A stretch of DNA of 64,000 nucleotides, taken from the IMG/VR virus record IMGVR_UViG_3300037601_000035; one strand, 5' to 3'. Below the pieces are notes generated by a model. That model did not search any database. It worked only from the letters and a program-made list of their open reading frames with translations, and was not told the origin of the DNA. The stretch's first letter is position 1. Each line of letters begins with the position of its first letter. The DNA is from an uncultured virus (IMG/VR IMGVR_UViG_3300037601_000035) (taxonomy: Duplodnaviria > Heunggongvirae > Uroviricota > Caudoviricetes). A program made the position numbers and the translations under genes. Positions 11,455 through 27,448 of this stretch are shown in pieces.

Positions 11455-11995
11455 AGAGTATCAAGAAGAAAGAACAGAATTTGGATGTCTAATGGCATAC
11501 TTTGAGTTTCCTTCTATTATTGATATTAGAAATCAAATTTCTGAAAATGATATATTAGAAGATTTCAGAGATTCAGGAGAACCTCATGTTACTATATTAT
11601 TTGGTTTTCATTTAGATGAAACTAATTATAAAGATATAGCAGAAGATTGTAAAAATTTAATTAAACAACCTATTGATGATATAAGAATTATTAATATAAG
11701 TACTTTTGAAAACGAAGAATATGATGTTCTTAAATTTACAGTAGAATCAGAAACTTTAACATCTTTAAATAATTATTTTAGAAATACATATCCTTATACA
11801 AATAATTTTCCAGATTATAACCCTCATATTACTATAGATTATCTTAAACCTGGATCAGGAGATAAATATGTAAATTCACTAGATATTTCAGAAGCTAAAA
11901 AAGAAAAAATAATATGTGATAAAGTAGTTTACTCTATGGGAAATTCTTATTATAAACCTTTCTATTATGTTCCTTCTGAAAGAGAAATTTTATAA
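11435..11995 (+). CDS. 2H phosphoesterase, T4 gp57B/Acb1-like (possible anti-CBASS nuclease)
   Basis: Two HxT motifs (PHVT, YNPHIT) and GCLM N-terminal strand. Confidence 0.75.
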   Translation: MQLKSYREYQEERTEFGCLMAYFEFPSIIDIRNQISENDILEDFRDSGEPHVTILFGFHLDETNYKDIAEDCKNLIKQPIDDIRIINISTFENEEYDVLKFTVESETLTSLNNYFRNTYPYTNNFPDYNPHITIDYLKPGSGDKYVNSLDISEAKKEKIICDKVVYSMGNSYYKPFYYVPSEREIL

Positions 11996-13200: not shown

Positions 13201-13289
13201 AAAAACTTTAAAAAATATTTTTTTATTACAAATAAAGTTGCTATATTACAATTCATTAAAAAACAAAACAAAAATAATTTTAATATATA
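13201..13289 (+). promoter_or_regulatory. Promoter block of tRNA operon 1 (near-duplicate of 25599-25686)
   Basis: About 90 bp shared with the region upstream of operon 2; contains TTTTTTATT..TATATTACA and AATATATA. Confidence 0.75.
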
Positions 13290-13298
13290 GATTATAAA

Positions 13299-13436
13299 AT
13301 GAAAAACAATATCACAAATATTACCCTAACACAAACGACACTTGATCAAAGTCAAGCATTATCGTCGCTTCAGTTATGTGCCGATTATCCGTGGGCATTT
13401 GGAAGGGTTATATTTAATGGTATACAAAATATGTAA
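13299..13436 (+). CDS. Attenuator leader peptide 1 (45 aa): MKNNITNITLTQTTLDQSQALSSLQLCADYPWAFGRVIFNGIQNM
   Basis: Translated by hand; codons 9-33 use only T,L,Q,D,S,A,C,Y,P,W, the amino acids of the downstream tRNAs. Confidence 0.8.
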   Translation: MKNNITNITLTQTTLDQSQALSSLQLCADYPWAFGRVIFNGIQNM

Positions 13437-13466
13437 ATATATTTTAATTAAATACGAAATTAAAAC

Positions 13467-13507
13467 AAACCCTTTCAGAAGAAATTTTGAAAGGGTTTTT
13501 CTTTTTT
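13467..13507 (+). terminator. Attenuator terminator 1
   Basis: AAACCCTTTCAGAA-GAAA-TTTTGAAAGGGTTT plus T-tract; 5' arm can instead pair with 13398-13409. Confidence 0.85.
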
Positions 13508-13522: not shown

Positions 13523-13535
13523 TGTTCATTGAAAA
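13523..13535 (+). promoter_or_regulatory. boxA-like antitermination site
   Basis: TGTTCATTGAAAA, similar to the rrn-leader boxA GTTCTTTGAAAA, just before the first tRNA. Confidence 0.55.
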
Positions 13536-13551
13536 GTAGAATGTATAAAAC

Positions 13552-13638
13552 AGAAGATCTGAGTATTGGTGAACTCACCTGTCTTGAAAACAGCTGACGT
13601 CGAAAGGGGTCTTTTCGGTTCGAATCCGGAATCTTCTG
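13552..13638 (+). tRNA. tRNA-Ser(TGA)
   Basis: AGAAGAT/ATCTTCT acceptor; loop CTTGAAA; long variable arm. Confidence 0.85.
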
Positions 13639-13724
13639 CAGTGTAACTATTATGATGACTCTTAGGAGTCTGACTATATTAAAAATATTTAGGAAATTTG
13701 GACATTATAATAGTTACTATTTTT

Positions 13725-13797
13725 GGGATAGAAGTGTTAATGGAAACACGCCGCATTGTCACTGCGGAAATTGTCGGTTCGATCCCGATGTATCCCG
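13725..13797 (+). tRNA. tRNA-Asp(GTC)
   Basis: CCGCA-TTGTCAC-TGCGG; T loop GGTTCGATCC. Confidence 0.9.
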
Positions 13798-13868
13798 CAA
13801 TATTTAGGTACGGTAATACCCGTTAAAGTAAATGGATTCTTGTCGTAAGACCAGCCTAAATTTTTTAT

Positions 13869-13941
13869 CAGTCTGTAGCTCAGTTGGTAGAGTACACCGT
13901 TTGGGGCGGTGGGGCCGCCGGATCGTGACCGGCCAGACTGA
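13869..13941 (+). tRNA. tRNA-Pro(TGG)
   Basis: CACCG-TTTGGGG-CGGTG; CAGTCTG/CAGACTG acceptor. Confidence 0.9.
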
Positions 13942-13945
13942 CAAC

Positions 13946-14020
13946 ATTTGCATCGTATAATTGGAAGTACACTTACTTGTTTTGTAGGTAAAGGCAATGG
14001 TTCGATTCCATTTGCAAATA
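13946..14020 (+). tRNA. Atypical tRNA-like element (nominal anticodon GTT)
   Basis: ATTTGCA/TGCAAAT acceptor; D and T arms present; loop TTGTTTT lacks purine 37. Confidence 0.5.
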
Positions 14021-14026
14021 TGTCAT

Positions 14027-14099
14027 GGGACAATAGCTCAATCGGGAGAGCACTGGTTTTGCAAATCAGAGGTTGTGGGTTCAATCCCCATTTGTTCCA
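14027..14099 (+). tRNA. tRNA-Ala(TGC)
   Basis: CTGGT-TTTGCAA-ATCAG; G3:U70 pair present. Confidence 0.9.
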
Positions 14100-14111
14100 C
14101 ATTTTTAATAT

Positions 14112-14193
14112 GCCAGTATCGAGCCGTGGGAGCTCAGGCGGATTGTAAACCCGTCCCGGAAACGGTATATAGGTTCGACTCCTATTGCTGGCA
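14112..14193 (+). tRNA. tRNA-Tyr(GTA)
   Basis: Loop TTGTAAA; long variable arm CCGGAAACGG. Confidence 0.85.
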
Positions 14194-14200
14194 CATTTAT

Positions 14201-14271
14201 TCCCTTGTAGTGTAATGATAGCACAGTTCACTTTGAATGAACTAGTCTCGGTTTGAATCCTGGCAAGGGAG
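14201..14271 (+). tRNA. tRNA-Gln(TTG)
   Basis: GTTCA-CTTTGAA-TGAAC. Confidence 0.9.
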
Positions 14272-14275
14272 CAAT

Positions 14276-14360
14276 AGTAGATTTGGGATATTGGTAATCC
14301 TAGCATGTTTGCTAAACATGTGGCCCTTGTGGTCTAAGTGTTCGATTCACTTATCTACTG
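14276..14360 (+). tRNA. tRNA-Ser(GCT)
   Basis: CATGT-TTGCTAA-ACATG; long variable arm. Confidence 0.85.
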
Positions 14361-14376
14361 CATTTTTTAATAACAT

Positions 14377-14462
14377 GCTCCCATGGCGAAATTTAGGTAG
14401 GCGCTCAGGACTTAAAATCCTGTGATCGAAAGGTCGTCCCGGTTCGAGTCCGGGTGGGAGTA
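14377..14462 (+). tRNA. tRNA-Leu(TAA)
   Basis: CAGGA-CTTAAAA-TCCTG; long variable arm. Confidence 0.92.
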
Positions 14463-14478
14463 CATCTAACGAGTAATT

Positions 14479-14808
14479 ATGAAACTTAAACAAGTAAAGT
14501 ATTTTTGTAGAAATAACACTAAATCAGGAATTGATTCTTTTGATAATTCAGTAAAGAATGTAATTGATGGAAGAGTTATTTTTTATATGATGGATTCTCA
14601 AGGAATGTCTTTTGATATTTTAATGGATTTATTAAATAATAAAAATATGGGTTTTGATGTAGAAACTTTTATTATTGCTGCAAAGGAAAGTAAAAATTAT
14701 AGAAAAGATAGATTAAGATTATTATTTGAATATAGTTCTCCTAATAAAGAAAAATATTTAGATTTTATGGAAAAGGTAGATTATTTACTTGATAAAATAT
14801 TTGATTAA
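14479..14808 (+). CDS. Small protein inside the tRNA array; resembles a helical segment of alanyl-tRNA synthetase
   Basis: IDGRVIFYMMDSQGMSFDIL resembles the AlaRS G..AF.LYDTYGFP.DL motif. Confidence 0.45.
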   Translation: MKLKQVKYFCRNNTKSGIDSFDNSVKNVIDGRVIFYMMDSQGMSFDILMDLLNNKNMGFDVETFIIAAKESKNYRKDRLRLLFEYSSPNKEKYLDFMEKVDYLLDKIFD

Positions 14809-14812
14809 ATAT

Positions 14813-14892
14813 GCGTCGGTGGCAGATAGGCAATGCAGCGGTCTCCAAAACCGTGTCGAAAGACTATGTGGGTTCAAATCCTACCCGGCGTG
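14813..14892 (+). tRNA. tRNA-Trp(CCA) with extra variable-arm hairpin
   Basis: GCGGT-CTCCAAA-ACCGT then GTC-GAAA-GAC. Confidence 0.88.
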
Positions 14893-14898
14893 CACAAA

Positions 14899-14972
14899 GC
14901 CTCGTTAGCTTAATTGGCTAGAGCGACACCGTTGTATCGTGTTAGGTCTCAGTTCGAATCTGAGACGAGGCT
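14899..14972 (+). tRNA. tRNA-Thr(TGT)
   Basis: GCCTCGT/ACGAGGC acceptor; loop GTTGTAT. Confidence 0.8.
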
Positions 14973-14979
14973 CATGAAT

Positions 14980-15065
14980 TCCCGCGTAGGCCAGAGGTGA
15001 GTCAGCCCGTTTAGACCGGGTGGTAACGTAAGATACAGTACGAGTTCGAATCTCGTCGCGGGGAC
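14980..15065 (+). tRNA. tRNA-Leu(TAG)
   Basis: GCCCG-TTTAGAC-CGGGT; long variable arm. Confidence 0.85.
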
Positions 15066-15098
15066 ATTATTAATCTAAAAGGAAAATATATACTTTAA

Positions 15099-15719
15099 GT
15101 GATAAAAATATATATGAACTTTTTTAAACTTTTCGAATCCTTTATTAGTGAAAATAGAATAGATAATCTATATAATGTGCTTAATAAATCAAATGAAGAA
15201 ATATTTGATTTATTAATTAACATTAAAGGTGTTGATTCTATTTTAAATAAATTAGGGTTAAAAGGAAAAACAGGAAAAACTGCTTCTCTTAAGGAAATGC
15301 AAATGTTGGCTTCTGCTTTAGATAGACCTTTTTGGTATAGTTCTTTACCTGTATCTTATTTCTTTTCTAGTCCAGAAAAACTTCCTGAAAGTACTTCTTT
15401 ACTTCATTTTACAAATAGACCAGATGAGATAATTAAAAAAGGATTTATTCACGGTACTGAAGATTTTAATAAACTTGGTATGTCATGGGGTAGTATGTCG
15501 GGTGGTAAACCTGGATGGAATTACGCATTTAGATTAGAAGATATTATTAAGTATTATGGATCTATAGAAAAAGCTAAACAACATTGGGGAAGAGAAAAGG
15601 TTATTGAATTTGAAGCTCCTGGTATTTTAGTTTGGCATCATGGAGATCAAGTAGATCAAGTTTTGTTTTGGGGCCCTGACGCAAAGAATATTAGAAAATA
15701 TAAGTCTTCTAATGGATAA
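15099..15719 (+). CDS. Putative virion-packaged protein, possible ADP-ribosyltransferase-like fold (start probably 15114)
   Basis: Leader KLFESFISE; LLHFT...IIKKGF motif. Confidence 0.45.
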   Translation: MIKIYMNFFKLFESFISENRIDNLYNVLNKSNEEIFDLLINIKGVDSILNKLGLKGKTGKTASLKEMQMLASALDRPFWYSSLPVSYFFSSPEKLPESTSLLHFTNRPDEIIKKGFIHGTEDFNKLGMSWGSMSGGKPGWNYAFRLEDIIKYYGSIEKAKQHWGREKVIEFEAPGILVWHHGDQVDQVLFWGPDAKNIRKYKSSNG

Positions 15720-15751
15720 AAACTTTTCCTTATTGTATAAGTATAATAAAT

Positions 15752-16114
15752 ATGGAAAAACTTATACAATTATATTCGAATTTATTTAAAGCTGCTTCAG
15801 AAGATATTAAAGAAGGTCCCATAGAATGGGAAGATTTTTTAGAAGGAGAAAAAGAATTTTTAAAATCATTTAATCTTGCTTATAGTTATTTATATTATTT
15901 TAAAGAGCTTTTAAATATTCCTTATGATGTATTCTTAGATGCTGATTTAGATATTAGATTTGTATTTTTTAAAAGAGAAGACACTTTTTCTATTTGTTTT
16001 ACAACTGAAGGTACTTTAGTCTTTGCAACTTCTGAATATTTAATTAAACCTTTTGAAGAAGAAGCTTCTATTGAAACATTTCTTAAAATTAAAAAACTAA
16101 TATTAGAAGGTTGA
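15752..16114 (+). CDS. Hypothetical protein
   Basis: ORF after AAACTT-N16-TATAAT at 15720-15747. Confidence 0.6.
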   Translation: MEKLIQLYSNLFKAASEDIKEGPIEWEDFLEGEKEFLKSFNLAYSYLYYFKELLNIPYDVFLDADLDIRFVFFKREDTFSICFTTEGTLVFATSEYLIKPFEEEASIETFLKIKKLILEG

Positions 16115-16115
16115 A

Positions 16116-16844
16116 ATGTATTATCAAAAATATACAAATTTAGATTTATTAAAATTAGCAGAACTTAATAAAGATGTTTATAAACAACCTAATCCTTTTC
16201 CTTCAATTTATTTTGATAATTTTTTTAAAGAAGATTATTTAACAGAAGTTTTAAATGAATTTCCTGATCTTTCTAGACAAAAAGAAATTTCTTCTTTTAA
16301 TAATCAAAATGAAAAGAAATTTGCTTCTAATGGAGATATTTTATTTGGAGAAAAAACAAGAGAACTTTTAAATTTTTGTAATTCAAAATATTTTTTAAAT
16401 TTTCTTCAAACTATTACAGGAATAAATGAACCTTTAATAGGAGATCCCTATTTTCTTGGAGGAGGTCTTCATGAAATTAAAAAGGGTGGATTGCTTGAAG
16501 TTCACGCAGATTTTAACAAACACTCTCTTCTAAATCTTGATAGAAGAATAAACGTACTTATTTATCTAAATAAAGATTGGAAAGAAGAATATGGTGGTCA
16601 CTTTGAATTATGGGACAAAGAAATGAGCGGTCCTCCTATTCAACTTTTACCTATATTCAATAGAATATGTATTTTTTCAACTACTGATTTTTCATATCAT
16701 GGACATCCTAATCCATTAACTTGTCCAGAAAATATGTCAAGAAAGTCCTTGGCTCTTTATTACTATAGTAACGGAAGACCTCAAGAAGAAATAAATACAG
16801 GACTAGAAAATCATTCTACATTATTCAAAAAGAGAACAAAATGA
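16116..16844 (+). CDS. 2OG-Fe(II) oxygenase
   Basis: GGGLH, HADFN (HxD), YLNKDW...GG.FELW, SYHG, RKSLALYYY. Confidence 0.9.
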   Translation: MYYQKYTNLDLLKLAELNKDVYKQPNPFPSIYFDNFFKEDYLTEVLNEFPDLSRQKEISSFNNQNEKKFASNGDILFGEKTRELLNFCNSKYFLNFLQTITGINEPLIGDPYFLGGGLHEIKKGGLLEVHADFNKHSLLNLDRRINVLIYLNKDWKEEYGGHFELWDKEMSGPPIQLLPIFNRICIFSTTDFSYHGHPNPLTCPENMSRKSLALYYYSNGRPQEEINTGLENHSTLFKKRTK

Positions 16845-17092
16845 TTGAGATTAAACTTGATATTAAACTTGGTATAAACGATATTGAAAGCGTTACAGTT
16901 CTTACTGATCATTTATCAGTCGATGAAGGAAAGTATTTAAGACGTAATAAGGAAACAATCTTTAATTATCTTAGAGAAGGTTTAGAACATGTTCGTAGTA
17001 AATATTTATTTGAACTAAGCATACCAAAAGTAAAAAACCTTATAACTGAAGAGTTAGAAGAATATGTAAATCAAAAAATTAAAACTTGCTAA
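16841..17092 (+). CDS. Hypothetical protein; its stop codon overlaps the 5' end of tRNA-Cys
   Basis: Coupled to the upstream ORF. Confidence 0.55.
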   Translation: MIEIKLDIKLGINDIESVTVLTDHLSVDEGKYLRRNKETIFNYLREGLEHVRSKYLFELSIPKVKNLITEELEEYVNQKIKTC

Positions 17093-17159
17093 CGTACCCA
17101 AGTGGTTAGGGAACTGCCTGCAAAGCAGATACACGGGAGTTCGAATCTCTCCGTTAGCT
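17088..17159 (+). tRNA. tRNA-Cys(GCA)
   Basis: CTGC-CTGCAAA-GCAG; GCTAACG/CGTTAGC acceptor; U73. Confidence 0.88.
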
Positions 17160-17164
17160 CGAAC

Positions 17165-17282: not shown

Positions 17283-17765
17283 ATGAAACAATTTAGATTA
17301 TTTAGAACTTCTGATGTTATAGAAGAAGATTATATCAGATATATTGAAAACTTCTTGGAGAAAAATCCTGGTTGCAAAGTGGCTGTAGGGACAGATTCTA
17401 AATGTAGAACAAGTAAAAGAAGAATTGTTTATGCTACGTGCATTGCTATATTTTATCCTGGAGTAGATGGATATGATAAAGGTGCTCATGTTATTTATTC
17501 TAAAGAAAAATTAGTAGGGAAGATGCCTTTATTTGAAAGACTTTGGGAAGAAGTTGATAGATCTAGAATAATAGCATCTGAAATAGAAGATGAATTACAA
17601 GTTCCTGTTGAAATTCATGTTGACATTAATCCTGATAAAGACTTTAAATCTAATGTTGCTTATCAACCTGCTATAGGTATGTTACAAGGAATGGGATATA
17701 CTGTTTTAGCTAAACCGGAAGCCCCCGCTGCTTCATGCGCAGCAGACGTTCTAGTGAATAGATAA
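17283..17765 (+). CDS. RNase H-like YkuK/DUF458 family protein
   Basis: VGTDS, RLWEEV..S, EIHVDIN, KPEAPAAS..AD. Confidence 0.85.
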   Translation: MKQFRLFRTSDVIEEDYIRYIENFLEKNPGCKVAVGTDSKCRTSKRRIVYATCIAIFYPGVDGYDKGAHVIYSKEKLVGKMPLFERLWEEVDRSRIIASEIEDELQVPVEIHVDINPDKDFKSNVAYQPAIGMLQGMGYTVLAKPEAPAASCAADVLVNR

Positions 17766-17831: not shown

Positions 17832-20024
17832 ATGGGACTTGCGTCTTCAAGAAAAAGATTTGTAAAAAGAAAACTTCTTACTCAAGATCATTTTAAAAGA
17901 CTATCTGAAGGAGATCCTTCTAAAAGTTATAAGTATCTTGAAAAGATGTGTGAATATGTTTCTTATGATAGAGCAAACATAAAAACAATAATAGATGAAG
18001 TTAAAGTTTTTGATTTTTTAGACAATACATATTTAAGCAATTCTGATATTCAAAATATTCCAAACTATTTAGAATTTCAAAGTATTATTAAAGATGCTTT
18101 AGAAAAGAAAAAAGAAATAGAATTAGTTAAAACGAAAAAGAATCATTTTGATATAATTGTTGACGATGAAAATTATTTAATAGTGTCTCCACATACTGAA
18201 GAATCTTCTATTAAATATGGCCAAGGAACTAAATGGTGTACTTCTTCTAAAGAATCTTTGAATCGTTTTGATCAATATAGAAAAGAATCTACTTTATATT
18301 ATATTCATAATAAGAAATTACCAGAAGTTGATCCTAATCATAAAATAGCACTTCAAGTATTTCTTGATGATAAAAGAGTTGATGAACATTGGAATGCAGT
18401 TGATAACAATATTTCTCCTCCTGAGTATATTGTAAATTTAAAAGAAAAATATAATTTTAAATTTTTTGAATTACCTGAAATTGAATATGAAAATGAGTAT
18501 GAAAGATACGGATTAGATATTGATAAAATTGTTTTTAATACAGATGGATCTATTGATTATCATGGAGACGTAAATCTTTCAAATAAAAAATTGACTAAGA
18601 TACCATTTAACTTTAGAAACGTCTATGGTCATTTTGATGTAAGTAACAACAAATTAATTTCTTTAAAAGGATGTCCTGAAAAAACATATAAATTTCATTG
18701 TGGTTGGAATCAATTAGTTTCATTAGAACATGGTCCAAAAAGTGTCACAACAGTCTATAATGCTGAACATAATAAATTAAAAAATATTGATTTTATTGCA
18801 ACAGAATATACTAAGTGTAATATTTATTTACAGCATAATGAAATTTCATCTATAGATTATAACATTATTTCTAATTTATCTTTTGTTTCTGCCAATGTTT
18901 TTTATATTTCATATAATTTATTAGAAGATGTAATATTAAAACCATTTTCATTTTTTAAAAATTTATATTTTTCTAATAATAAAATTAAAAAAATTATTGA
19001 TAAAGCTCTTTGGTTAGAGTTTGAACAACTAGATCTTTCTTCTAATAAATTAAAAAAATTCGGATACCAGGCAAATTCTTATACAATACACAATTTAAAT
19101 TTAGCATCTAATCAAATAGAAAATATAACCTTTGAATTTTTATCAGTAAGAAATTTAAATTTAAATAACAACAGAATTAAAAAACTTAAATCTATACTTT
19201 TATTTAAATGTGATTCATTATATTTATCCGACAATCTTATAGAAGAAGTAGATTTAGAAAATTTTATAATTTCTACAAAATTAGATTTAAATAAAAATTT
19301 AATTTGTTTTAACAAAATAAAATTTGCTAAAGCTAGAGGATATATTCAAAATCTTTTTCTTAATGATAATCCTATGTCAATTAAGAAAACTCCGTCTTCT
19401 AATAAAATAGATCGTATCGTCGCAGGAATAATTCATAACATTGAAAATTTGCTTTCATATAAAAAATTAGATTTTGAAAAACCTGAAAAAATAGATGATT
19501 TAGAAAAAGAAATTTATGACATCTACAAAAATTTTAAATTATATCAACAGCTATCCTTAAAGTTTACTTTTTCTGAAATTATTCGAATCGGGAATTATAA
19601 TTTGGGAGATTGTATGACAGGGTCTATTCAAGTAGAAAAAGAACGGCCTTATAGATGGATCACTGATGTTCCATTGCCTGGTACACAAGGAGATTTTATT
19701 TCAAGAAGAGGGATAGCGGGTTTTGGATCTCATAGTATTCAAACAACACCAAGAGAGAATATACTTAAAGTAGTTGGTCATCTAGATTATCCTTCTTCTT
19801 TAACAGTTAAATTAACAAATAAAAAAGATGATTCTAGAGAAGCGTTTGAAGAAGTAGACGGACAATTTAGATTATTTGGTCCATTAAATCACTCTTCATC
19901 AGAAACTTTCAGACTTTCTAAAAGTAGAGAACGTACTACTATAGAACAGCTGGAATCAGTTTCATATATTGTTGAAAGATATGAATCGCTTACTACGACA
20001 ACGGAAAATAGAGGAAACGAATGA
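17832..20024 (+). CDS. Leucine-rich-repeat protein with KYGQGTKWCT domain (paralog A)
   Basis: LxLxxNxI repeats; N-terminal half very similar to the next gene. Confidence 0.8.
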   Translation: MGLASSRKRFVKRKLLTQDHFKRLSEGDPSKSYKYLEKMCEYVSYDRANIKTIIDEVKVFDFLDNTYLSNSDIQNIPNYLEFQSIIKDALEKKKEIELVKTKKNHFDIIVDDENYLIVSPHTEESSIKYGQGTKWCTSSKESLNRFDQYRKESTLYYIHNKKLPEVDPNHKIALQVFLDDKRVDEHWNAVDNNISPPEYIVNLKEKYNFKFFELPEIEYENEYERYGLDIDKIVFNTDGSIDYHGDVNLSNKKLTKIPFNFRNVYGHFDVSNNKLISLKGCPEKTYKFHCGWNQLVSLEHGPKSVTTVYNAEHNKLKNIDFIATEYTKCNIYLQHNEISSIDYNIISNLSFVSANVFYISYNLLEDVILKPFSFFKNLYFSNNKIKKIIDKALWLEFEQLDLSSNKLKKFGYQANSYTIHNLNLASNQIENITFEFLSVRNLNLNNNRIKKLKSILLFKCDSLYLSDNLIEEVDLENFIISTKLDLNKNLICFNKIKFAKARGYIQNLFLNDNPMSIKKTPSSNKIDRIVAGIIHNIENLLSYKKLDFEKPEKIDDLEKEIYDIYKNFKLYQQLSLKFTFSEIIRIGNYNLGDCMTGSIQVEKERPYRWITDVPLPGTQGDFISRRGIAGFGSHSIQTTPRENILKVVGHLDYPSSLTVKLTNKKDDSREAFEEVDGQFRLFGPLNHSSSETFRLSKSRERTTIEQLESVSYIVERYESLTTTTENRGNE

Positions 20025-22213
20025 GTTTACAAACAGCAAAGAAAAGATTTTTAAAAAGAAAGTTGATTAATTATGAAGACTTTCATAAATTATCTAAATC
20101 AGATCCTTCTAAAAGTTATAAGTATCTTGAAAAGATGTGTGAATTTTATGTATACGATAAAGTAGAAATAGATATTTTATGTAAAGAAGTTGATAATTTC
20201 CATTCCATTCCAGATTCTTATTTAGAAAATTCAGATATTCAATCTATTCCAAATCACATTGAATTTGAAAAAATTGTTAAAGATGCTTTAAATAAGAAAC
20301 ACGAAAAAGAAAATAAAAAATTCTCTAAAGACAATTCTATTGTTTTAGTTGATGATGAAGAATATCAAATAGTAATTCCTAATTCTATAGATTCGTCTAT
20401 AAAATATGGTCAAGGAACTAAATGGTGTACGGCTGCTAAAGAAGATAATTATTTTAATTCTTATAGAGAAGATAATACTTTGTATTATATTTGGAATAAA
20501 AAATTATCTAAAAATAGTTATGTTTATAAAATAGCAGTAGTAGTTAATAAGGATAATATAATTAATTCTGTATGGAATGCAAAAGATCATCAAATTAATG
20601 AGCATATAGTAGAACCTATCATAAGTAAATATAAAGAAAAATTTACCTTTAAATATGTTGAAAGAACATATACTAATGAATATGAAAAATACGGGTTAGA
20701 TACAACTAAGATAACGTTTAATAGCGATGGTACTATAAATTATGACGGTAATGTTGATTTAATAGGAAAAAAATTAACTAAGATACCGTTTAATTTTAAA
20801 TATGTAAACGGATATTTTAATATAAGTAATAATCTAATATCTAGTTTAAAAGGATGTCCTGAAAGAATAGAAAGTTTTTTTAGTGCTAATTATAACAAAA
20901 TTAAAAGTTTAAAATATGGACCTATGTTTGTAGGAACTGCTTATAGTGTAACCAATAATCAATTAAGAACTATAAAAGGAATTGCCAAGGAAATAGGTTT
21001 TACTGTCGATTTAGATAGCAATAAAATATCTAACGTTAAAGGATTTGATACTATTAAATTTAAGAATAAAACAAATTTATATTTAAATGGAAATAAATTA
21101 AAAAATTCTCAATTAAAATATTTAAAAATTTATGAATGGAATAATGTAAGTTTAGCAAGTAATAAATTATCAGGAACTATCGATTCTAAATGTTTAGATT
21201 TCCCTGTATTTGAAAAAGTAGATATGGATAGATTAATATTACATGATAATGAAATATCAATTTTTAAAGTATATTTTAATTTTATAGATCAATTAAGTAT
21301 TGGGAATAATAAATTAACATATTGTACGCTTCCCGGAAACGCACGTAATGTAGATTTATCATTTAATTTAATTGAAAGGGTAGAAAATAAATCTATTTCA
21401 GATAGAAATATTAATTATTTAATATTAGATAACAATAAAATTAATCAAATAAATTTTAGAAATATATTTATTAGTGGAGAGTTATCTCTGAAAAATAATA
21501 ATATTGAAAAAAATTCTTTTATTCCTATTGAAAATGATCATTATATTAATACAATTCATTTAGGAGGTAATCCTATAAATATAGAATATGATTTTAAATT
21601 TCCTAAAAATTTTAATGTTACTAAAATAAATAATCAATCTACGATTAATTTATACGAATATGGTGATAATGATATATTTTTATCAAATAGATATAAATTG
21701 ATTAATAAAATAAACAAAAAAGAAAAGTTAGATTATGATGAATATTATCAATTATGGAATTCTAAAGAACAGCTTGTAATAAATTTTGATTCTATTAAGG
21801 AAGAAGAATTAATAGATCCGCCCATTGCTAGTGCGCCTGGAGATTTTAAAGAAATGCTTGAAAGAGCATTTAAAAATTCATTAAAAGAACATATTCTTGA
21901 TAGTAATGACATAGTACCTTCACGGCCGTCGAGAATGCCTCCTCCAACAAGGGGCCTCCATTATATTGATTATGTTTATGAACATCCAGAATCTTCAGGT
22001 ACTGTTAATCTTGGATTCAAAATTGTAAATAAAGATCAACCGGGTTTATTCGATTCAATGTATCAAAATATTGATGTTAATGGAAAAACTATATTTGAAT
22101 CTAAAGATAGTGATTTTCATATAAATGATCTTGAGGAAAAATTAAAAAATGAATCTTCTGCAGTTAAAAATATGCTTAACGAATGGACACAATTTATAGA
22201 GAGACAACAATGA
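20021..22213 (+). CDS. Leucine-rich-repeat protein with KYGQGTKWCT domain (paralog B)
   Basis: Same architecture and length as paralog A. Confidence 0.8.
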   Translation: MSLQTAKKRFLKRKLINYEDFHKLSKSDPSKSYKYLEKMCEFYVYDKVEIDILCKEVDNFHSIPDSYLENSDIQSIPNHIEFEKIVKDALNKKHEKENKKFSKDNSIVLVDDEEYQIVIPNSIDSSIKYGQGTKWCTAAKEDNYFNSYREDNTLYYIWNKKLSKNSYVYKIAVVVNKDNIINSVWNAKDHQINEHIVEPIISKYKEKFTFKYVERTYTNEYEKYGLDTTKITFNSDGTINYDGNVDLIGKKLTKIPFNFKYVNGYFNISNNLISSLKGCPERIESFFSANYNKIKSLKYGPMFVGTAYSVTNNQLRTIKGIAKEIGFTVDLDSNKISNVKGFDTIKFKNKTNLYLNGNKLKNSQLKYLKIYEWNNVSLASNKLSGTIDSKCLDFPVFEKVDMDRLILHDNEISIFKVYFNFIDQLSIGNNKLTYCTLPGNARNVDLSFNLIERVENKSISDRNINYLILDNNKINQINFRNIFISGELSLKNNNIEKNSFIPIENDHYINTIHLGGNPINIEYDFKFPKNFNVTKINNQSTINLYEYGDNDIFLSNRYKLINKINKKEKLDYDEYYQLWNSKEQLVINFDSIKEEELIDPPIASAPGDFKEMLERAFKNSLKEHILDSNDIVPSRPSRMPPPTRGLHYIDYVYEHPESSGTVNLGFKIVNKDQPGLFDSMYQNIDVNGKTIFESKDSDFHINDLEEKLKNESSAVKNMLNEWTQFIERQQ

Positions 22214-25170: not shown

Positions 25171-25593
25171 ATGAATAACGAAAATATAGTAGAAAGTTAC
25201 AATGACTTTCATAGAATAAACGAAAACGAAGAAAGTAAAAATGATGTTTCAGAATCGATAATTTTAGTTGATAATGAAGATTATTTAATTGTTGTTCCTA
25301 AAAATTATGAAGACTCTGTTAAATATGGAAAAGGTGCTAAATGGATGCCTGCTTATACCGGATATGGTGGAGAATATTCTTTTGATTTATATAATGAACA
25401 AGGTACTTTGTACTATATTATAAACAAAAATCTCGATAGTGATGATTCATTATCTAAAATTGGAATTTATATAGATTCTAGAAATGATAGTAAACATATT
25501 TATGATGTAAATGATTATACTTTGAAATGGGAAGATTTACCAAAAGAAATTTTTGATCATTTACCTGAAGAGGAATTTATTCATAGAGATTAA
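25171..25593 (+). CDS. Putative internal protein: targeting leader plus stand-alone KYG.G.KW domain
   Basis: IVESYNDFHRINE; domain shared with the two LRR paralogs. Confidence 0.7.
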   Translation: MNNENIVESYNDFHRINENEESKNDVSESIILVDNEDYLIVVPKNYEDSVKYGKGAKWMPAYTGYGGEYSFDLYNEQGTLYYIINKNLDSDDSLSKIGIYIDSRNDSKHIYDVNDYTLKWEDLPKEIFDHLPEEEFIHRD

Positions 25594-25598
25594 TTTTA

Positions 25599-25686
25599 AA
25601 AAACTTTAAAAAATATTTTTTTATTACAAAGACATTTACTATATTACAATTCATTAAAAACAAAACAAAAATAATTTTAATATATA
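25599..25686 (+). promoter_or_regulatory. Promoter block of tRNA operon 2
   Basis: Near-identical to 13201-13289. Confidence 0.75.
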
Positions 25687-25715
25687 AATTATATTTTTAA
25701 AAACAATAAAGAAAA

Positions 25716-25844
25716 ATGCTTTCAAGAAATATACATAATAACATAAATAAGAATTTCAATATCGAAATGGGTCGTAAGAATCATTTTGGGAGAGAAATTT
25801 TTGTCGAGAATATTTCTGAGAAGCTGAACGTATTTAAAACGTAA
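25716..25844 (+). CDS. Attenuator leader peptide 2 (42 aa): MLSRNIHNNINKNFNIEMGRKNHFGREIFVENISEKLNVFKT
   Basis: Translated by hand; codons 4-33 use only R,N,I,H,K,F,E,M,G,V, the amino acids of the downstream tRNAs. Confidence 0.8.
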   Translation: MLSRNIHNNINKNFNIEMGRKNHFGREIFVENISEKLNVFKT

Positions 25845-25867
25845 ACTTTATTTAAATATAAAATTTT

Positions 25868-25904
25868 AAAAGCTTCTTAGGAAATATCTTAAGAAGCTTT
25901 TTTT
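25868..25904 (+). terminator. Attenuator terminator 2
   Basis: AAAAGCTTCTTAGGA-AATA-TCTTAAGAAGCTTTT plus Ts; 5' arm can instead pair with 25814-25825. Confidence 0.85.
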
Positions 25905-25912
25905 GTTATAAT

Positions 25913-25925
25913 AGTTCTTTGAAAA
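25913..25925 (+). promoter_or_regulatory. boxA-like antitermination site
   Basis: AGTTCTTTGAAAA just before the first tRNA. Confidence 0.65.
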
Positions 25926-25937
25926 TTTAGAAATAAC

Positions 25938-26011
25938 GCCCGAGTGGTCTAATTGGTCAGGACACTACACTTTCTATGTAGGGATTGCGAGTTCGAGTCT
26001 CGTCTCGGGTA
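25938..26011 (+). tRNA. tRNA-Glu(TTC)
   Basis: CTACA-CTTTCTA-TGTAG (unusual U37). Confidence 0.8.
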
Positions 26012-26027
26012 CACTTAAATGATAAAT

Positions 26028-26103
26028 CCGGTCGTAGCTAAGTTGGTGAAAGCATCCCACTCATAATGGGAAGATATCGAAAGTTCAAGTCTTTCCGGCC
26101 GGA
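26028..26103 (+). tRNA. tRNA with CAT anticodon (elongator Met or Ile2)
   Basis: TCCCA-CTCATAA-TGGGA. Confidence 0.85.
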
Positions 26104-26112
26104 CATTAATAT

Positions 26113-26186
26113 AGCAGGGTAGAGCAGATGGCCAGCTCGCGAGGTTCATATTCTCGAGGTCGTGGGTTCGAATCCCGCCCCTGCCA
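26113..26186 (+). tRNA. tRNA-Met(CAT), initiator-like
   Basis: A1:C72 mismatch; CGAGG-TTCATAT-TCTCG. Confidence 0.8.
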
Positions 26187-26192
26187 CTATAT

Positions 26193-26267
26193 GGGGAATT
26201 AGCTTAGTAGATTTAAAGCGCAACTTTTACAAAGTTGAGATCAAAGGTTTGAATCCTTTATTCCCTA
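26193..26267 (+). tRNA. tRNA-Val(TAC)
   Basis: CAACT-TTTACAA-AGTTG. Confidence 0.9.
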
Positions 26268-26273
26268 CAACAT

Positions 26274-26349
26274 GAACTGCTGGCGCAATTGGATTTAGCG
26301 CATCGGATTTTTACTCCGAGGGTTCCGGGTTCAAGTCCCGGGCAGTTCA
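26274..26349 (+). tRNA. tRNA-Lys(TTT)
   Basis: TCGGA-TTTTTAC-TCCGA. Confidence 0.9.
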
Positions 26350-26354
26350 CATAT

Positions 26355-26428
26355 ACACAACTAGCTTAATTGGTGAAAGCGCAGGTCTGATACACCTGAG
26401 AGTGAAAGTTCAAATCTTTCGTTGTGTA
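26355..26428 (+). tRNA. tRNA-Ile(GAT)
   Basis: CAGGT-CTGATAC-ACCTG. Confidence 0.9.
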
Positions 26429-26436
26429 CACGATAT

Positions 26437-26509
26437 TCCCTTGTAGCTCAATTGGAAGAGCGTAGGATTTCTAATCCTAAGGTTGGAGGTTCAAGTCCTC
26501 TCGAGGGAA
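26437..26509 (+). tRNA. tRNA-Arg(TCT)
   Basis: TAGGA-TTTCTAA-TCCTA. Confidence 0.92.
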
Positions 26510-26526
26510 CTTATTTTTTTAATAAT

Positions 26527-26600
26527 GCACCTATGTTGTTTAATTGCTAGCATGAAACCCTTCCAAGGTTTAGGTCTCGGTTGGAATCCGAGTAGGTGCT
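26527..26600 (+). tRNA. tRNA-Gly(TCC)
   Basis: AAACC-CTTCCAA-GGTTT; U73. Confidence 0.88.
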
Positions 26601-26713
26601 CAATATATGATACGTTTTTGAATAATTCTGTTTTATAACTAGCTTTGGTTTAGGCGAGCAGATTGAAGGAATTATCAGAAGTCTAGTAGTCTCTAGATTA
26701 TCATATTTTATAT

Positions 26714-26788
26714 GGACCCTTAACTTAAACGTGGTGAGAGTGCCTGGTTGAAGCCCAGGAAGTACTGGTTCGATTCCGGTAGGGTCCA
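26714..26788 (+). tRNA. tRNA-Phe(GAA)
   Basis: CCTGG-TTGAAGC-CCAGG. Confidence 0.88.
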
Positions 26789-26815
26789 CAATATTTAAAT
26801 TATAAGGATAATAAT

Positions 26816-27154
26816 ATGTGTATTTTTTGTTCTATTGTTAATAAAAAGATTCGATCGAATATCCAGTACGAAGATGATTTAGTACTTGCTTTTGATGATA
26901 TAAATCCAGTAGCAGATATTCATATATTGATTATTCCAAAAATTCATATTGTAAATTTATATGAAAAGAGTTCAGATGGTAAAGAATTAATTTATGGAAG
27001 AATGTTAAAAGTTGCATCTGATTTATCTCGTAAACATAAATTAAAAAATGGATTTAGAATAGTAATAAATAATGGAAAAGATGGACTTCAAGATGTTAAT
27101 CATTTACATATTCATTTAATAGGTGGAAGAAAGCTTTCATATCCTATAGCGTAA
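26816..27154 (+). CDS. HIT family (HinT-like) nucleotide phosphoramidase inside the tRNA array
   Basis: CIFC, AFDDINP, HILIIPK.H, HLHIHLIGGR. Confidence 0.92.
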   Translation: MCIFCSIVNKKIRSNIQYEDDLVLAFDDINPVADIHILIIPKIHIVNLYEKSSDGKELIYGRMLKVASDLSRKHKLKNGFRIVINNGKDGLQDVNHLHIHLIGGRKLSYPIA

Positions 27155-27164
27155 TTTAAACTTT

Positions 27165-27235
27165 TCTCCTGTAATTTAAAGGTAAAATGCCATACTGTTA
27201 ATATGGTCTTGGGGGTTCAAGTCCCTCCGGGAGAG
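27165..27235 (+). tRNA. tRNA-Asn(GTT)
   Basis: CCATA-CTGTTAA-TATGG. Confidence 0.9.
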
Positions 27236-27245
27236 CACTTTATAA

Positions 27246-27318
27246 GCCCATATAGCTCAACTGAAAGAGCACTTGAATACGAATCGAGAGGTTGTGAGTT
27301 TGAATCTTACTATGGGTT
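27246..27318 (+). tRNA. tRNA-Arg(ACG)
   Basis: CTTGA-ATACGAA-TCGAG. Confidence 0.85.
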
Positions 27319-27326
27319 CTTGATAT

Positions 27327-27404
27327 GGTGATTGTAGCTTAATTGGTTAAAGCCCTTGGTTGTGAGCCAAGACGATGCGAGTTCGACTCTCGTGAATCAC
27401 CCCA
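27327..27404 (+). tRNA. tRNA-His(GTG) with G-1 and encoded CCA
   Basis: CTTGG-TTGTGAG-CCAAG. Confidence 0.9.
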
Positions 27405-27407
27405 AAT

Positions 27408-27448
27408 AAAAATCCTTACTAAAAAATAAATTAGTAAGGATTTTTTTT
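27408..27448. terminator. Bidirectional terminator between tRNA operon 2 and the convergent gene
   Basis: AAAAATCCTTACTAA...TTAGTAAGGATTTTT. Confidence 0.8.

Follow-up and report, generated by a model that had tools for sequence, protein, structure and literature searches.

The question raised by this locus is whether a 42-codon open reading frame (ORF) and the hairpin that follows it govern the transcription of the twelve tRNA genes behind them, and to which signal they would respond. Clusters of tRNA genes are common in phages and their role is debated, with codon compensation and escape from tRNA-targeting defence as the two views, and to our knowledge next to nothing has been described of the regulation of such clusters. 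The first-pass annotation had read the locus as the second of two leaders that follow the same attenuator logic with unrelated sequence, and this reading is weighed here in the window, by which we mean the whole stretch of DNA analysed, with a length of 64 kb.

The window has 26.8% G+C, comes from an uncultured phage, and its genes for a portal protein, for subunits of topoisomerase II, for an RNA ligase and for a NAD-dependent DNA ligase mark it as a section of a large phage genome. Contigs of up to 193 kb have been recorded with the leader peptides dealt with below, and near-identical DNA was found in the 17 sequencing runs listed, all of them on record as DNA (15 pond metagenome and 2 aquatic metagenome); no cultured phage close to the window was found. 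For tRNA genes, 24 were found by ARAGORN and one more by Rfam, and the resulting 25 genes cover all 20 amino acids. The additional gene, tRNA-Gly(UCC) at 26529-26598, was missed by ARAGORN and is detected by Rfam at 30.1 bits (cut-off 29), its anticodon loop being that of Gly(UCC), and it explains two Gly residues of leader 2 which had seemed to lie outside the amino acid set of the array downstream. With this gene included, the phage has a complete minimal decoding set of 25 predicted tRNAs for 20 amino acids. The 25 genes are split between two transcription units, with Asn as the only amino acid represented in both, and both units follow one order: a promoter and 5' UTR which are near-identical between them, an ORF of 42-45 codons, an intrinsic terminator and the tRNAs. 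The arrays are the following:

13552-17160, + strand: tRNA unit 1, in the order Ser, Asp, Pro, Asn, Ala, Tyr, Gln, Ser, Leu, an ORF, Trp, Thr, Leu, four ORFs, Cys
25938-27404, + strand: tRNA unit 2, in the order Glu, two tRNAs with CAU anticodon, Val, Lys, Ile, Arg(UCU), Gly(UCC), Phe, an ORF with HIT domain, Asn, Arg(ACG), His
27408-27445, + strand: terminator closing unit 2

No strong terminator was found inside unit 1. The protein genes embedded in the tRNA units include the HIT-domain gene of unit 2 (26816-27154, E = 4e-23), a 109-residue ORF that matches alanyl-tRNA synthetase below threshold (14479-14808) and a 2OG-Fe(II) oxygenase gene (16116-16844), and a gene for an RNase H-like PF04308 protein (17283-17765) is grouped with them.

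The features of module 2, which carries leader 2, are given below, all of them on the strand shown.

25599-25650, + strand: promoter-like block, 32 bases of which are identical to 13201-13232 of module 1, with a -35/-10-like pair at 25623-25650
25651-25715, + strand: A-rich 5' UTR, about 90% identical to the 5' UTR of module 1
25716-25844, + strand: leader ORF 2, 42 codons plus stop
25718-25732, + strand: segment 1, the anti-antiterminator strand, overlapping codons 1-6 of leader 2
25725-25814, + strand: sensing run, codons 4-33 of leader 2, with unit-2 amino acids only and all unit-2 tRNAs sampled
25814-25825, + strand: segment 2, the antiterminator strand, which pairs with segment 1 or with 25871-25882
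25868-25904, + strand: intrinsic terminator with a 15-pair stem, its 5' arm being segment 3 and its 3' arm segment 4
25904-25912, + strand: extended -10-like element directly after the terminator, a possible unregulated promoter
25914-25924, + strand: 11-base conserved block between the terminator and the first tRNA, with a counterpart in module 1

Leader ORF 2 is the only ORF of at least 30 amino acids between 25594 and 25937; it starts 66 bases past the promoter-like block and ends 94 bases before the first tRNA. In the terminator, 25868-25882 pairs with 25887-25901 around a 4-base loop, seven T follow, and the hairpin has a folding energy of -17.7 kcal/mol. The corresponding features of module 1 are:

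13201-13252, + strand: promoter-like block
13299-13436, + strand: leader ORF 1, 45 codons, with codons 9-33 drawn from unit-1 amino acids only
13398-13409, + strand: segment 2, which pairs with 13468-13479
13467-13503, + strand: intrinsic terminator

Alignment of the two modules showed about 95% identity over the stretch that begins with the promoter-like block and ends with the 5' UTR. The ORFs and the terminators cannot be aligned and the start codons are not homologous, and each module nevertheless has its own complementarity, so that the earlier view of the two leaders as an internal replication of one design holds. What the two peptides share is a six-residue motif, at residues 24-29 of leader 2 and 34-39 of leader 1. 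Beyond the terminators, the 11-base block (13524-13534 and 25914-25924) occurs in only two copies in the window, both of them before tRNAs, where 0.37 are expected. It was also seen in other phages at 12 to 18 bases upstream of the first tRNA of an array, for example in contigs L195 (5094-5104, - strand) and L189 (7681-7691), and may be a processing or promoter element.

The strongest result concerns the match between the codons of each leader and the tRNA set behind it. In leader 2, codons 4-33 are 30 consecutive codons that all come from the ten amino acids of unit 2 (P = 1.8e-7), and in leader 1, codons 9-33 are 25 consecutive codons that all come from the eleven amino acids of unit 1 (P = 5.6e-7), where both probabilities are based on the amino acid frequencies of the window's 71 longer ORFs. 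The longest comparable in-set runs in the proteome of the window (18,779 residues) are 17 and 16, and none of the 15,868 and 15,655 proteome windows qualified as such a run. When the leaders were scored against the set of the other unit, runs of only 2 and 9 were obtained, and when the amino acids were partitioned at random, 3 of 200,000 trials did equally well. The match extends to the level of the individual tRNA: if wobble is ordinary, U34 reads all four codons of a family box and CAU anticodons read ATG or ATA, a cognate codon is present in its own leader for every tRNA (12 of 12 for unit 2 and 13 of 13 for unit 1), both isoacceptors of Arg, of Ser and of Leu are sampled, and no codon of the runs is unreadable by the tRNAs of its own unit. 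In leader 2, Arg is encoded by AGA twice and by CGT, in keeping with the Arg(UCU) and Arg(ACG) genes of unit 2, and Ile by all three codons (ATA, ATC and ATT), just as had been noted from the sequence. The sensing runs also favour rare synonymous codons, with geometric mean relative frequencies of 0.358 and 0.23; in genes, the mean is 0.533 and the 5th percentile is 0.379 (3208 gene windows). The rare codons which are over-used end in G or C, giving a GC3 of 0.30 and 0.32 in the runs in comparison to 0.114 in genes. Each tRNA is sampled by one to few scattered codons without tandem runs, and the single Trp codon of leader 1 is codon 32, a position at which a ribosome, if stalled, would hide part of segment 2. 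Taken together, we regard the link between the leaders and their tRNA sets as close to certain.

The residues of leader 2 which fall outside the set are L2, S3, S34, L37 and T42, and every one of them belongs either to one of the two pairing segments (1 or 2) or to a small hairpin located at the stop codon. The placing of L2 and S3 in segment 1 and of S34 and L37 in segment 2 agrees with the earlier description, to which T42 has to be added. In both leaders, the in-set run stops at the first base of segment 2, at 25814 in leader 2 and at 13398 in leader 1.

The two alternative pairings that had been proposed for leader 2 are both present. Segment 1 pairs with 25810-25824 (the 1:2 pairing) through 13 of 15 positions with one G-U pair and a 2-base internal mismatch, the duplex having -13.4 kcal/mol, and 11 of 2000 shuffles do as well; for leader 1 the count is 136 of 2000, so that its 1:2 pairing is not significant. 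Segment 2 pairs with the terminator arm at 25871-25882 (the 2:3 pairing) at all 12 positions, two of them G-U. For the ORF region of leader 2 against the 5' arm of the terminator, the energy was -16.4 kcal/mol in comparison to -6.9 kcal/mol (sd 1.7) for the shuffles, and 0 of 2000 dinucleotide shuffles reached it, and for leader 1 the energy was -16.2 kcal/mol, reached by 2 of 2000 shuffles. The leader RNAs as a whole are highly structured, with a fold z score of -5.8 for leader 2, where 0 of 200 shuffles folded equally well, and of -5.0 for leader 1. At full length, the minimum-energy fold of leader 2 consists of the 1:2 pairing and the terminator, and for the nascent RNA folded up to the terminator loop the 2:3 pairing is the minimum-energy structure in both leaders. 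Leader 2 thus holds a leader ORF, a codon match, an intrinsic terminator, and both an antiterminator and an anti-antiterminator pairing.

Folding of leader 2 with a 27-base ribosome footprint masked showed that the 2:3 pairing forms with the A site at codons 2-31 and is blocked at codons 32-41, a modelled behaviour that fits a classical attenuator in which a stall within the run would free segment 2. The geometry is less tidy at the end of the ORF. The stop codon lies 17 to 25 bases past segment 2 in both leaders, and a ribosome at the stop codon of leader 2 leaves segment 2 uncovered, where equilibrium folding again favours the 2:3 antiterminator, as it does for leader 2 without any ribosome (-37.7 kcal/mol in comparison to -32.4 kcal/mol for the 1:2 pairing). 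Because equilibrium folding prefers the 2:3 pairing even without a ribosome, termination after smooth translation must rest on folding order or on steric exclusion, and the latter is conceivable since segments 2 and 3 are separated by a loop of 44 bases, within which a ribosome at the stop codon would lie. The attenuator logic that had been assigned to the two leaders is supported, every structural element of it being present in both modules, and its fine geometry is less tidy than had been implied.

On these grounds, it is probable that leaders 1 and 2 are ribosome-mediated transcription attenuators which gate their tRNA units through stall-induced read-through, where we infer the translation of the leaders, the direction of the response and the kinetics. 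In the case of leader 2, transcription would begin at the conserved promoter near 25650 and a ribosome would load on the 42-codon ORF. Slow decoding of any of codons 4-33 would stall the ribosome upstream of segment 2 and block the 1:2 pairing; the freed segment 2 would pair with the 5' arm of the terminator as this arm emerges, the terminator could not form, and RNA polymerase would proceed into the twelve tRNA genes of unit 2. With smooth decoding, the ribosome would be on or just past segment 2, or the 1:2 pairing would form again, and the transcript would end near 25904, while with no translation at all the 1:2 pairing would form first and the terminator would form too. Leader 2 would thus be an OR gate with ten amino acids as inputs, the other ten plus Asn falling to leader 1. 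Since the product is tRNA and not a biosynthetic enzyme, the circuit would be a negative feedback on usable tRNA.

The same layout was found in three contigs (L143, L029 and L195) within a sample of 235 other phage loci, and their leaders are matched array by array. When small ORFs upstream of tRNA arrays were scanned (137 candidates in 47 loci), P <= 2e-4 was obtained for three of them, namely both leaders of the window and the one of L195, and in mismatched controls, in which ORFs were scored against arrays from other loci, 0 of 411 reached this value. With stricter array boundaries (655 candidates), P <= 0.01 was reached by 6 of the 48 candidates with a terminator in comparison to 14 of the 607 without one. 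Three candidates were set aside: one in L186 had a good composition score but no terminator, and a Lys-rich ORF in L188 and an ORF in L078 with three His codons before tRNA-His scored in the stricter scan, yet neither has a good terminator. The leaders of L143 and L029 are located as follows:

L143, 4772-4891, 6197-6271 and 7693-7809, - strand: paralogous leader ORFs with a common start, and a terminator after each
L029, 10596-10658, 11121-11228 and 12177-12239: leader-plus-terminator modules which subdivide one 18-tRNA array

The three leaders of L143 precede arrays for Lys/His/Phe/Trp, Arg/Ser and Asn/Asn, respectively, and carry tandem runs of cognate codons. Scored against their own arrays, 10, 8 and 7 of 18 central codons are in-set, in comparison to 0 to 5 against the other arrays, and a complement to the terminator arm stands directly after the in-set codons, a result reached by 14 of 1000 shuffles. 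In L029, modules one and two match their own sub-arrays, both by eye and in the composition scan, and the third module, upstream of tRNAs for Leu (three) and Tyr, contains many Leu codons, drawn from both codon families; in the first module, pairing with the terminator arm is matched by 137 of 1000 shuffles and falls short of significance. In L195 the layout is complete, with the terminator included, and its arm complement, again directly after the in-set codons, was reached by 43 of 1000 shuffles. No leader-like ORF was found in three cultured or assembled large-array phages (L108-L110), nor in five regions of more distant relatives (L111-L115).

As peptides, the leaders have next to no relatives. 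Among 5.8 billion proteins, leader 2 matched nothing but itself, and leader 1 has two close variants only, in public assemblies, which are 96% and 82% identical and come from contigs of 4.7 and 3.9 kb; within the run, these variants carry three substitutions, two of which stay in-set and one of which, in one of the variants, is off-set (Ala to Val at residue 20), and residue 34 is changed as well. No true relative of the leaders as a protein family was found among 1.84 billion representatives, where a HMMER scan returned long repeat proteins only. In the viral_contigs collection, a 22-base exact word of the promoter block had no match, and the neighbouring proteins of 112 and 140 amino acids had no relatives. 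A neighbouring protein of 705 amino acids was found in 29 viral and 78 metagenome loci, with an identity of 54% or less throughout, and its top match in phage records is 32% identical; among the loci found through this protein, a leader is present in L029 only.

Four other explanations have to be weighed against attenuation by stalled ribosomes. The closest of them uses the same elements with the opposite logic: active translation of the leader would lead to read-through, as segment 1 would be covered by ribosomes and the first of them would have moved beyond segment 2, and termination would follow when the leader is not translated or when a ribosome stalls on segment 2, so that the tRNA unit would be switched on by working translation, as a check or a positive feedback, and not by shortage. 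It draws on the overlap of segment 1 with the initiation region, through which initiating ribosomes would hide this segment, on the position of the stop codon beyond segment 2 in both leaders, and on the folding results, in which the 2:3 pairing is favoured as long as segment 2 is accessible, even once the ribosome has reached the stop codon. We hold it to be unlikely: it leaves unexplained why the run samples the tRNA set exactly and why it stops exactly at segment 2, a positive feedback on tRNA has no obvious use, and the tandem cognate codons in the leaders of L143 resemble those of attenuators that sense shortage.

The remaining three explanations are less likely still. The ORF could encode an ordinary small phage protein, with the hairpin ending its transcript and the tRNA array being transcribed from a downstream promoter of its own, for which the extended -10-like element at 25904-25912 would be a candidate; L189 has a promoter-like site directly before the 11-base block and a tRNA, without a leader, and the six-residue motif common to both leaders is what paralogous proteins could show. 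The extended -10 motif is however not enriched in the window (12 sites in comparison to 8.7 expected) and the site at 25904-25912 is not conserved in module 1, the near absence of relatives among the 5.8 billion proteins gives no protein family, and an ordinary protein cannot explain the set-matched composition, the complement to the terminator arm or the matched recurrence in L143, L029 and L195, which makes this explanation quite improbable. It is likewise highly improbable that the terminated leader RNA or the peptide is a trans-acting product, with tRNA control secondary or absent. The pronounced structure of both leader RNAs would suit such a role, and a trans-acting attenuator RNA is the subject of a published study (PMC6614838); but no target is evident, there is no conserved RNA family, and the codon match would be unexplained, and such a product would moreover be compatible with attenuation rather than exclusive of it. 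As for a spurious ORF that happens to lie beside a terminator in A+T-rich DNA, both of these elements abound by chance at 27% G+C, hairpins as well as small ORFs, and promoter-like hexamers are not enriched here, yet the composition, the terminator-arm pairing, the tRNA sampling and the locus scans refute chance statistically, and its probability is negligible. Stall-induced read-through is therefore the reading that we carry forward.

Leader-peptide attenuators are well known from enterobacteria, in the trp, his, leu and pheA operons and, as multivalent forms, in thr and ilvGMEDA. Similar to these, the phage modules consist of a short leader ORF with regulatory codons, an intrinsic terminator and mutually exclusive 1:2, 2:3 and 3:4 pairings, and, as in the thr and ilv leaders, one leader would sense several amino acids. 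One difference is that the phage leaders would regulate tRNA genes and not biosynthetic enzymes, from which it follows that the signal sensed would be tRNA supply rather than amino acid supply. The phage leaders also sample ten or eleven amino acids, mostly through scattered single codons, while the classical leaders use tandem codons; their stop codon lies beyond segment 2 and not before it; and they are encoded by a phage in two copies, whose complementary sets add up to all 20 amino acids. No Rfam leader family reached its cut-off on either module, and tRNA was the only Rfam family detected. The model of the His operon leader gave 25 bits (cut-off 49, E = 0.095) on 13353-13503, in module 1 only, and module 2 gave sub-threshold matches to terminator-like sRNA models.

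The control of aminoacyl-tRNA synthetase genes by tRNA charging is known from the pheM leader of the pheST operon and from T-box riboswitches. In these systems, as proposed for the phage modules, the state of the tRNA pool is sensed and a component of decoding is regulated through transcription termination. The T-box, however, binds the uncharged tRNA directly and needs no translation, while the phage leaders are proposed to act through the leader ORF, and a search for the T-box gave no match, with the gathering threshold applied to the window and E <= 5 to 25590-25940. The pheM leader senses one amino acid and controls a synthetase, while the phage leaders would control the tRNA genes themselves. 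Phage tRNA clusters, for their part, have been viewed as compensating for host tRNA loss or codon mismatch; the present phage resembles other large lytic-type phages in its large tRNA complement, which here is a complete minimal set of 25 tRNAs. A full-text literature search, taken at the level of its result summaries, returned no case of leader-peptide control of tRNA genes and no element that ties phage tRNA clusters to decoding status. The logic is that of leader-peptide attenuation, whose defining structural features are present, and the proposed control of tRNA genes is its new aspect.

If the proposed mechanism is true, phages would measure decoding capacity and tune the synthesis of tRNAs accordingly, and textbook attenuation would be widened from amino acid supply to tRNA supply. 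The signature, a leader whose composition equals the downstream tRNA set, would find further units of this kind and predict which tRNAs a phage expects to lose, and the modules, being compact (about 300 bases), could act as laboratory sensors of the depletion of single tRNAs. A broader interpretation, which we offer as tentative and take to be possible rather than probable, is that the two leaders form a complete dipstick of decoding capacity, through which the loss of any one host tRNA would induce the full replacement set, serving both as a counter-defence and as a tRNA homeostat, and that they represent a widespread and so far undescribed regulatory class of phages with tRNA arrays. The loss of host tRNA could be caused by anticodon nucleases of host defence, by phage-induced decay of host RNA, or by codon mismatch with a genome of 27% G+C.

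Some further observations concern the surroundings of the two modules. A family of promoter-like A+T-rich repeats of about 35-50 bases lies before genes at 17764, 23327, 33262, 49124, 51064 and 56324, and also at 13211 and 25609, where the promoters of the two leaders form a distinct sub-type, and many genes of the window lack a Shine-Dalgarno sequence. The promoter-like sites of L195, L189 and L029 resemble the consensus of the Bacteroidota -7 element, and by this likeness the host may be a member of the Bacteroidota. Distant relatives (L002, L009, L024, L025; L006, L013, L023, L025) carry tmRNA genes and tRNAs with the anticodon CUA (amber suppressors), which hints at a reassigned stop codon in some of them. 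In the window itself, two paralogues of 730 amino acids stand in tandem (17832-20024 and 20021-22213), and a family of small genes with a common 5' end, found at 11993, 12509, 25141, 55557, 55847 and 59828, includes the gene immediately upstream of leader 2.
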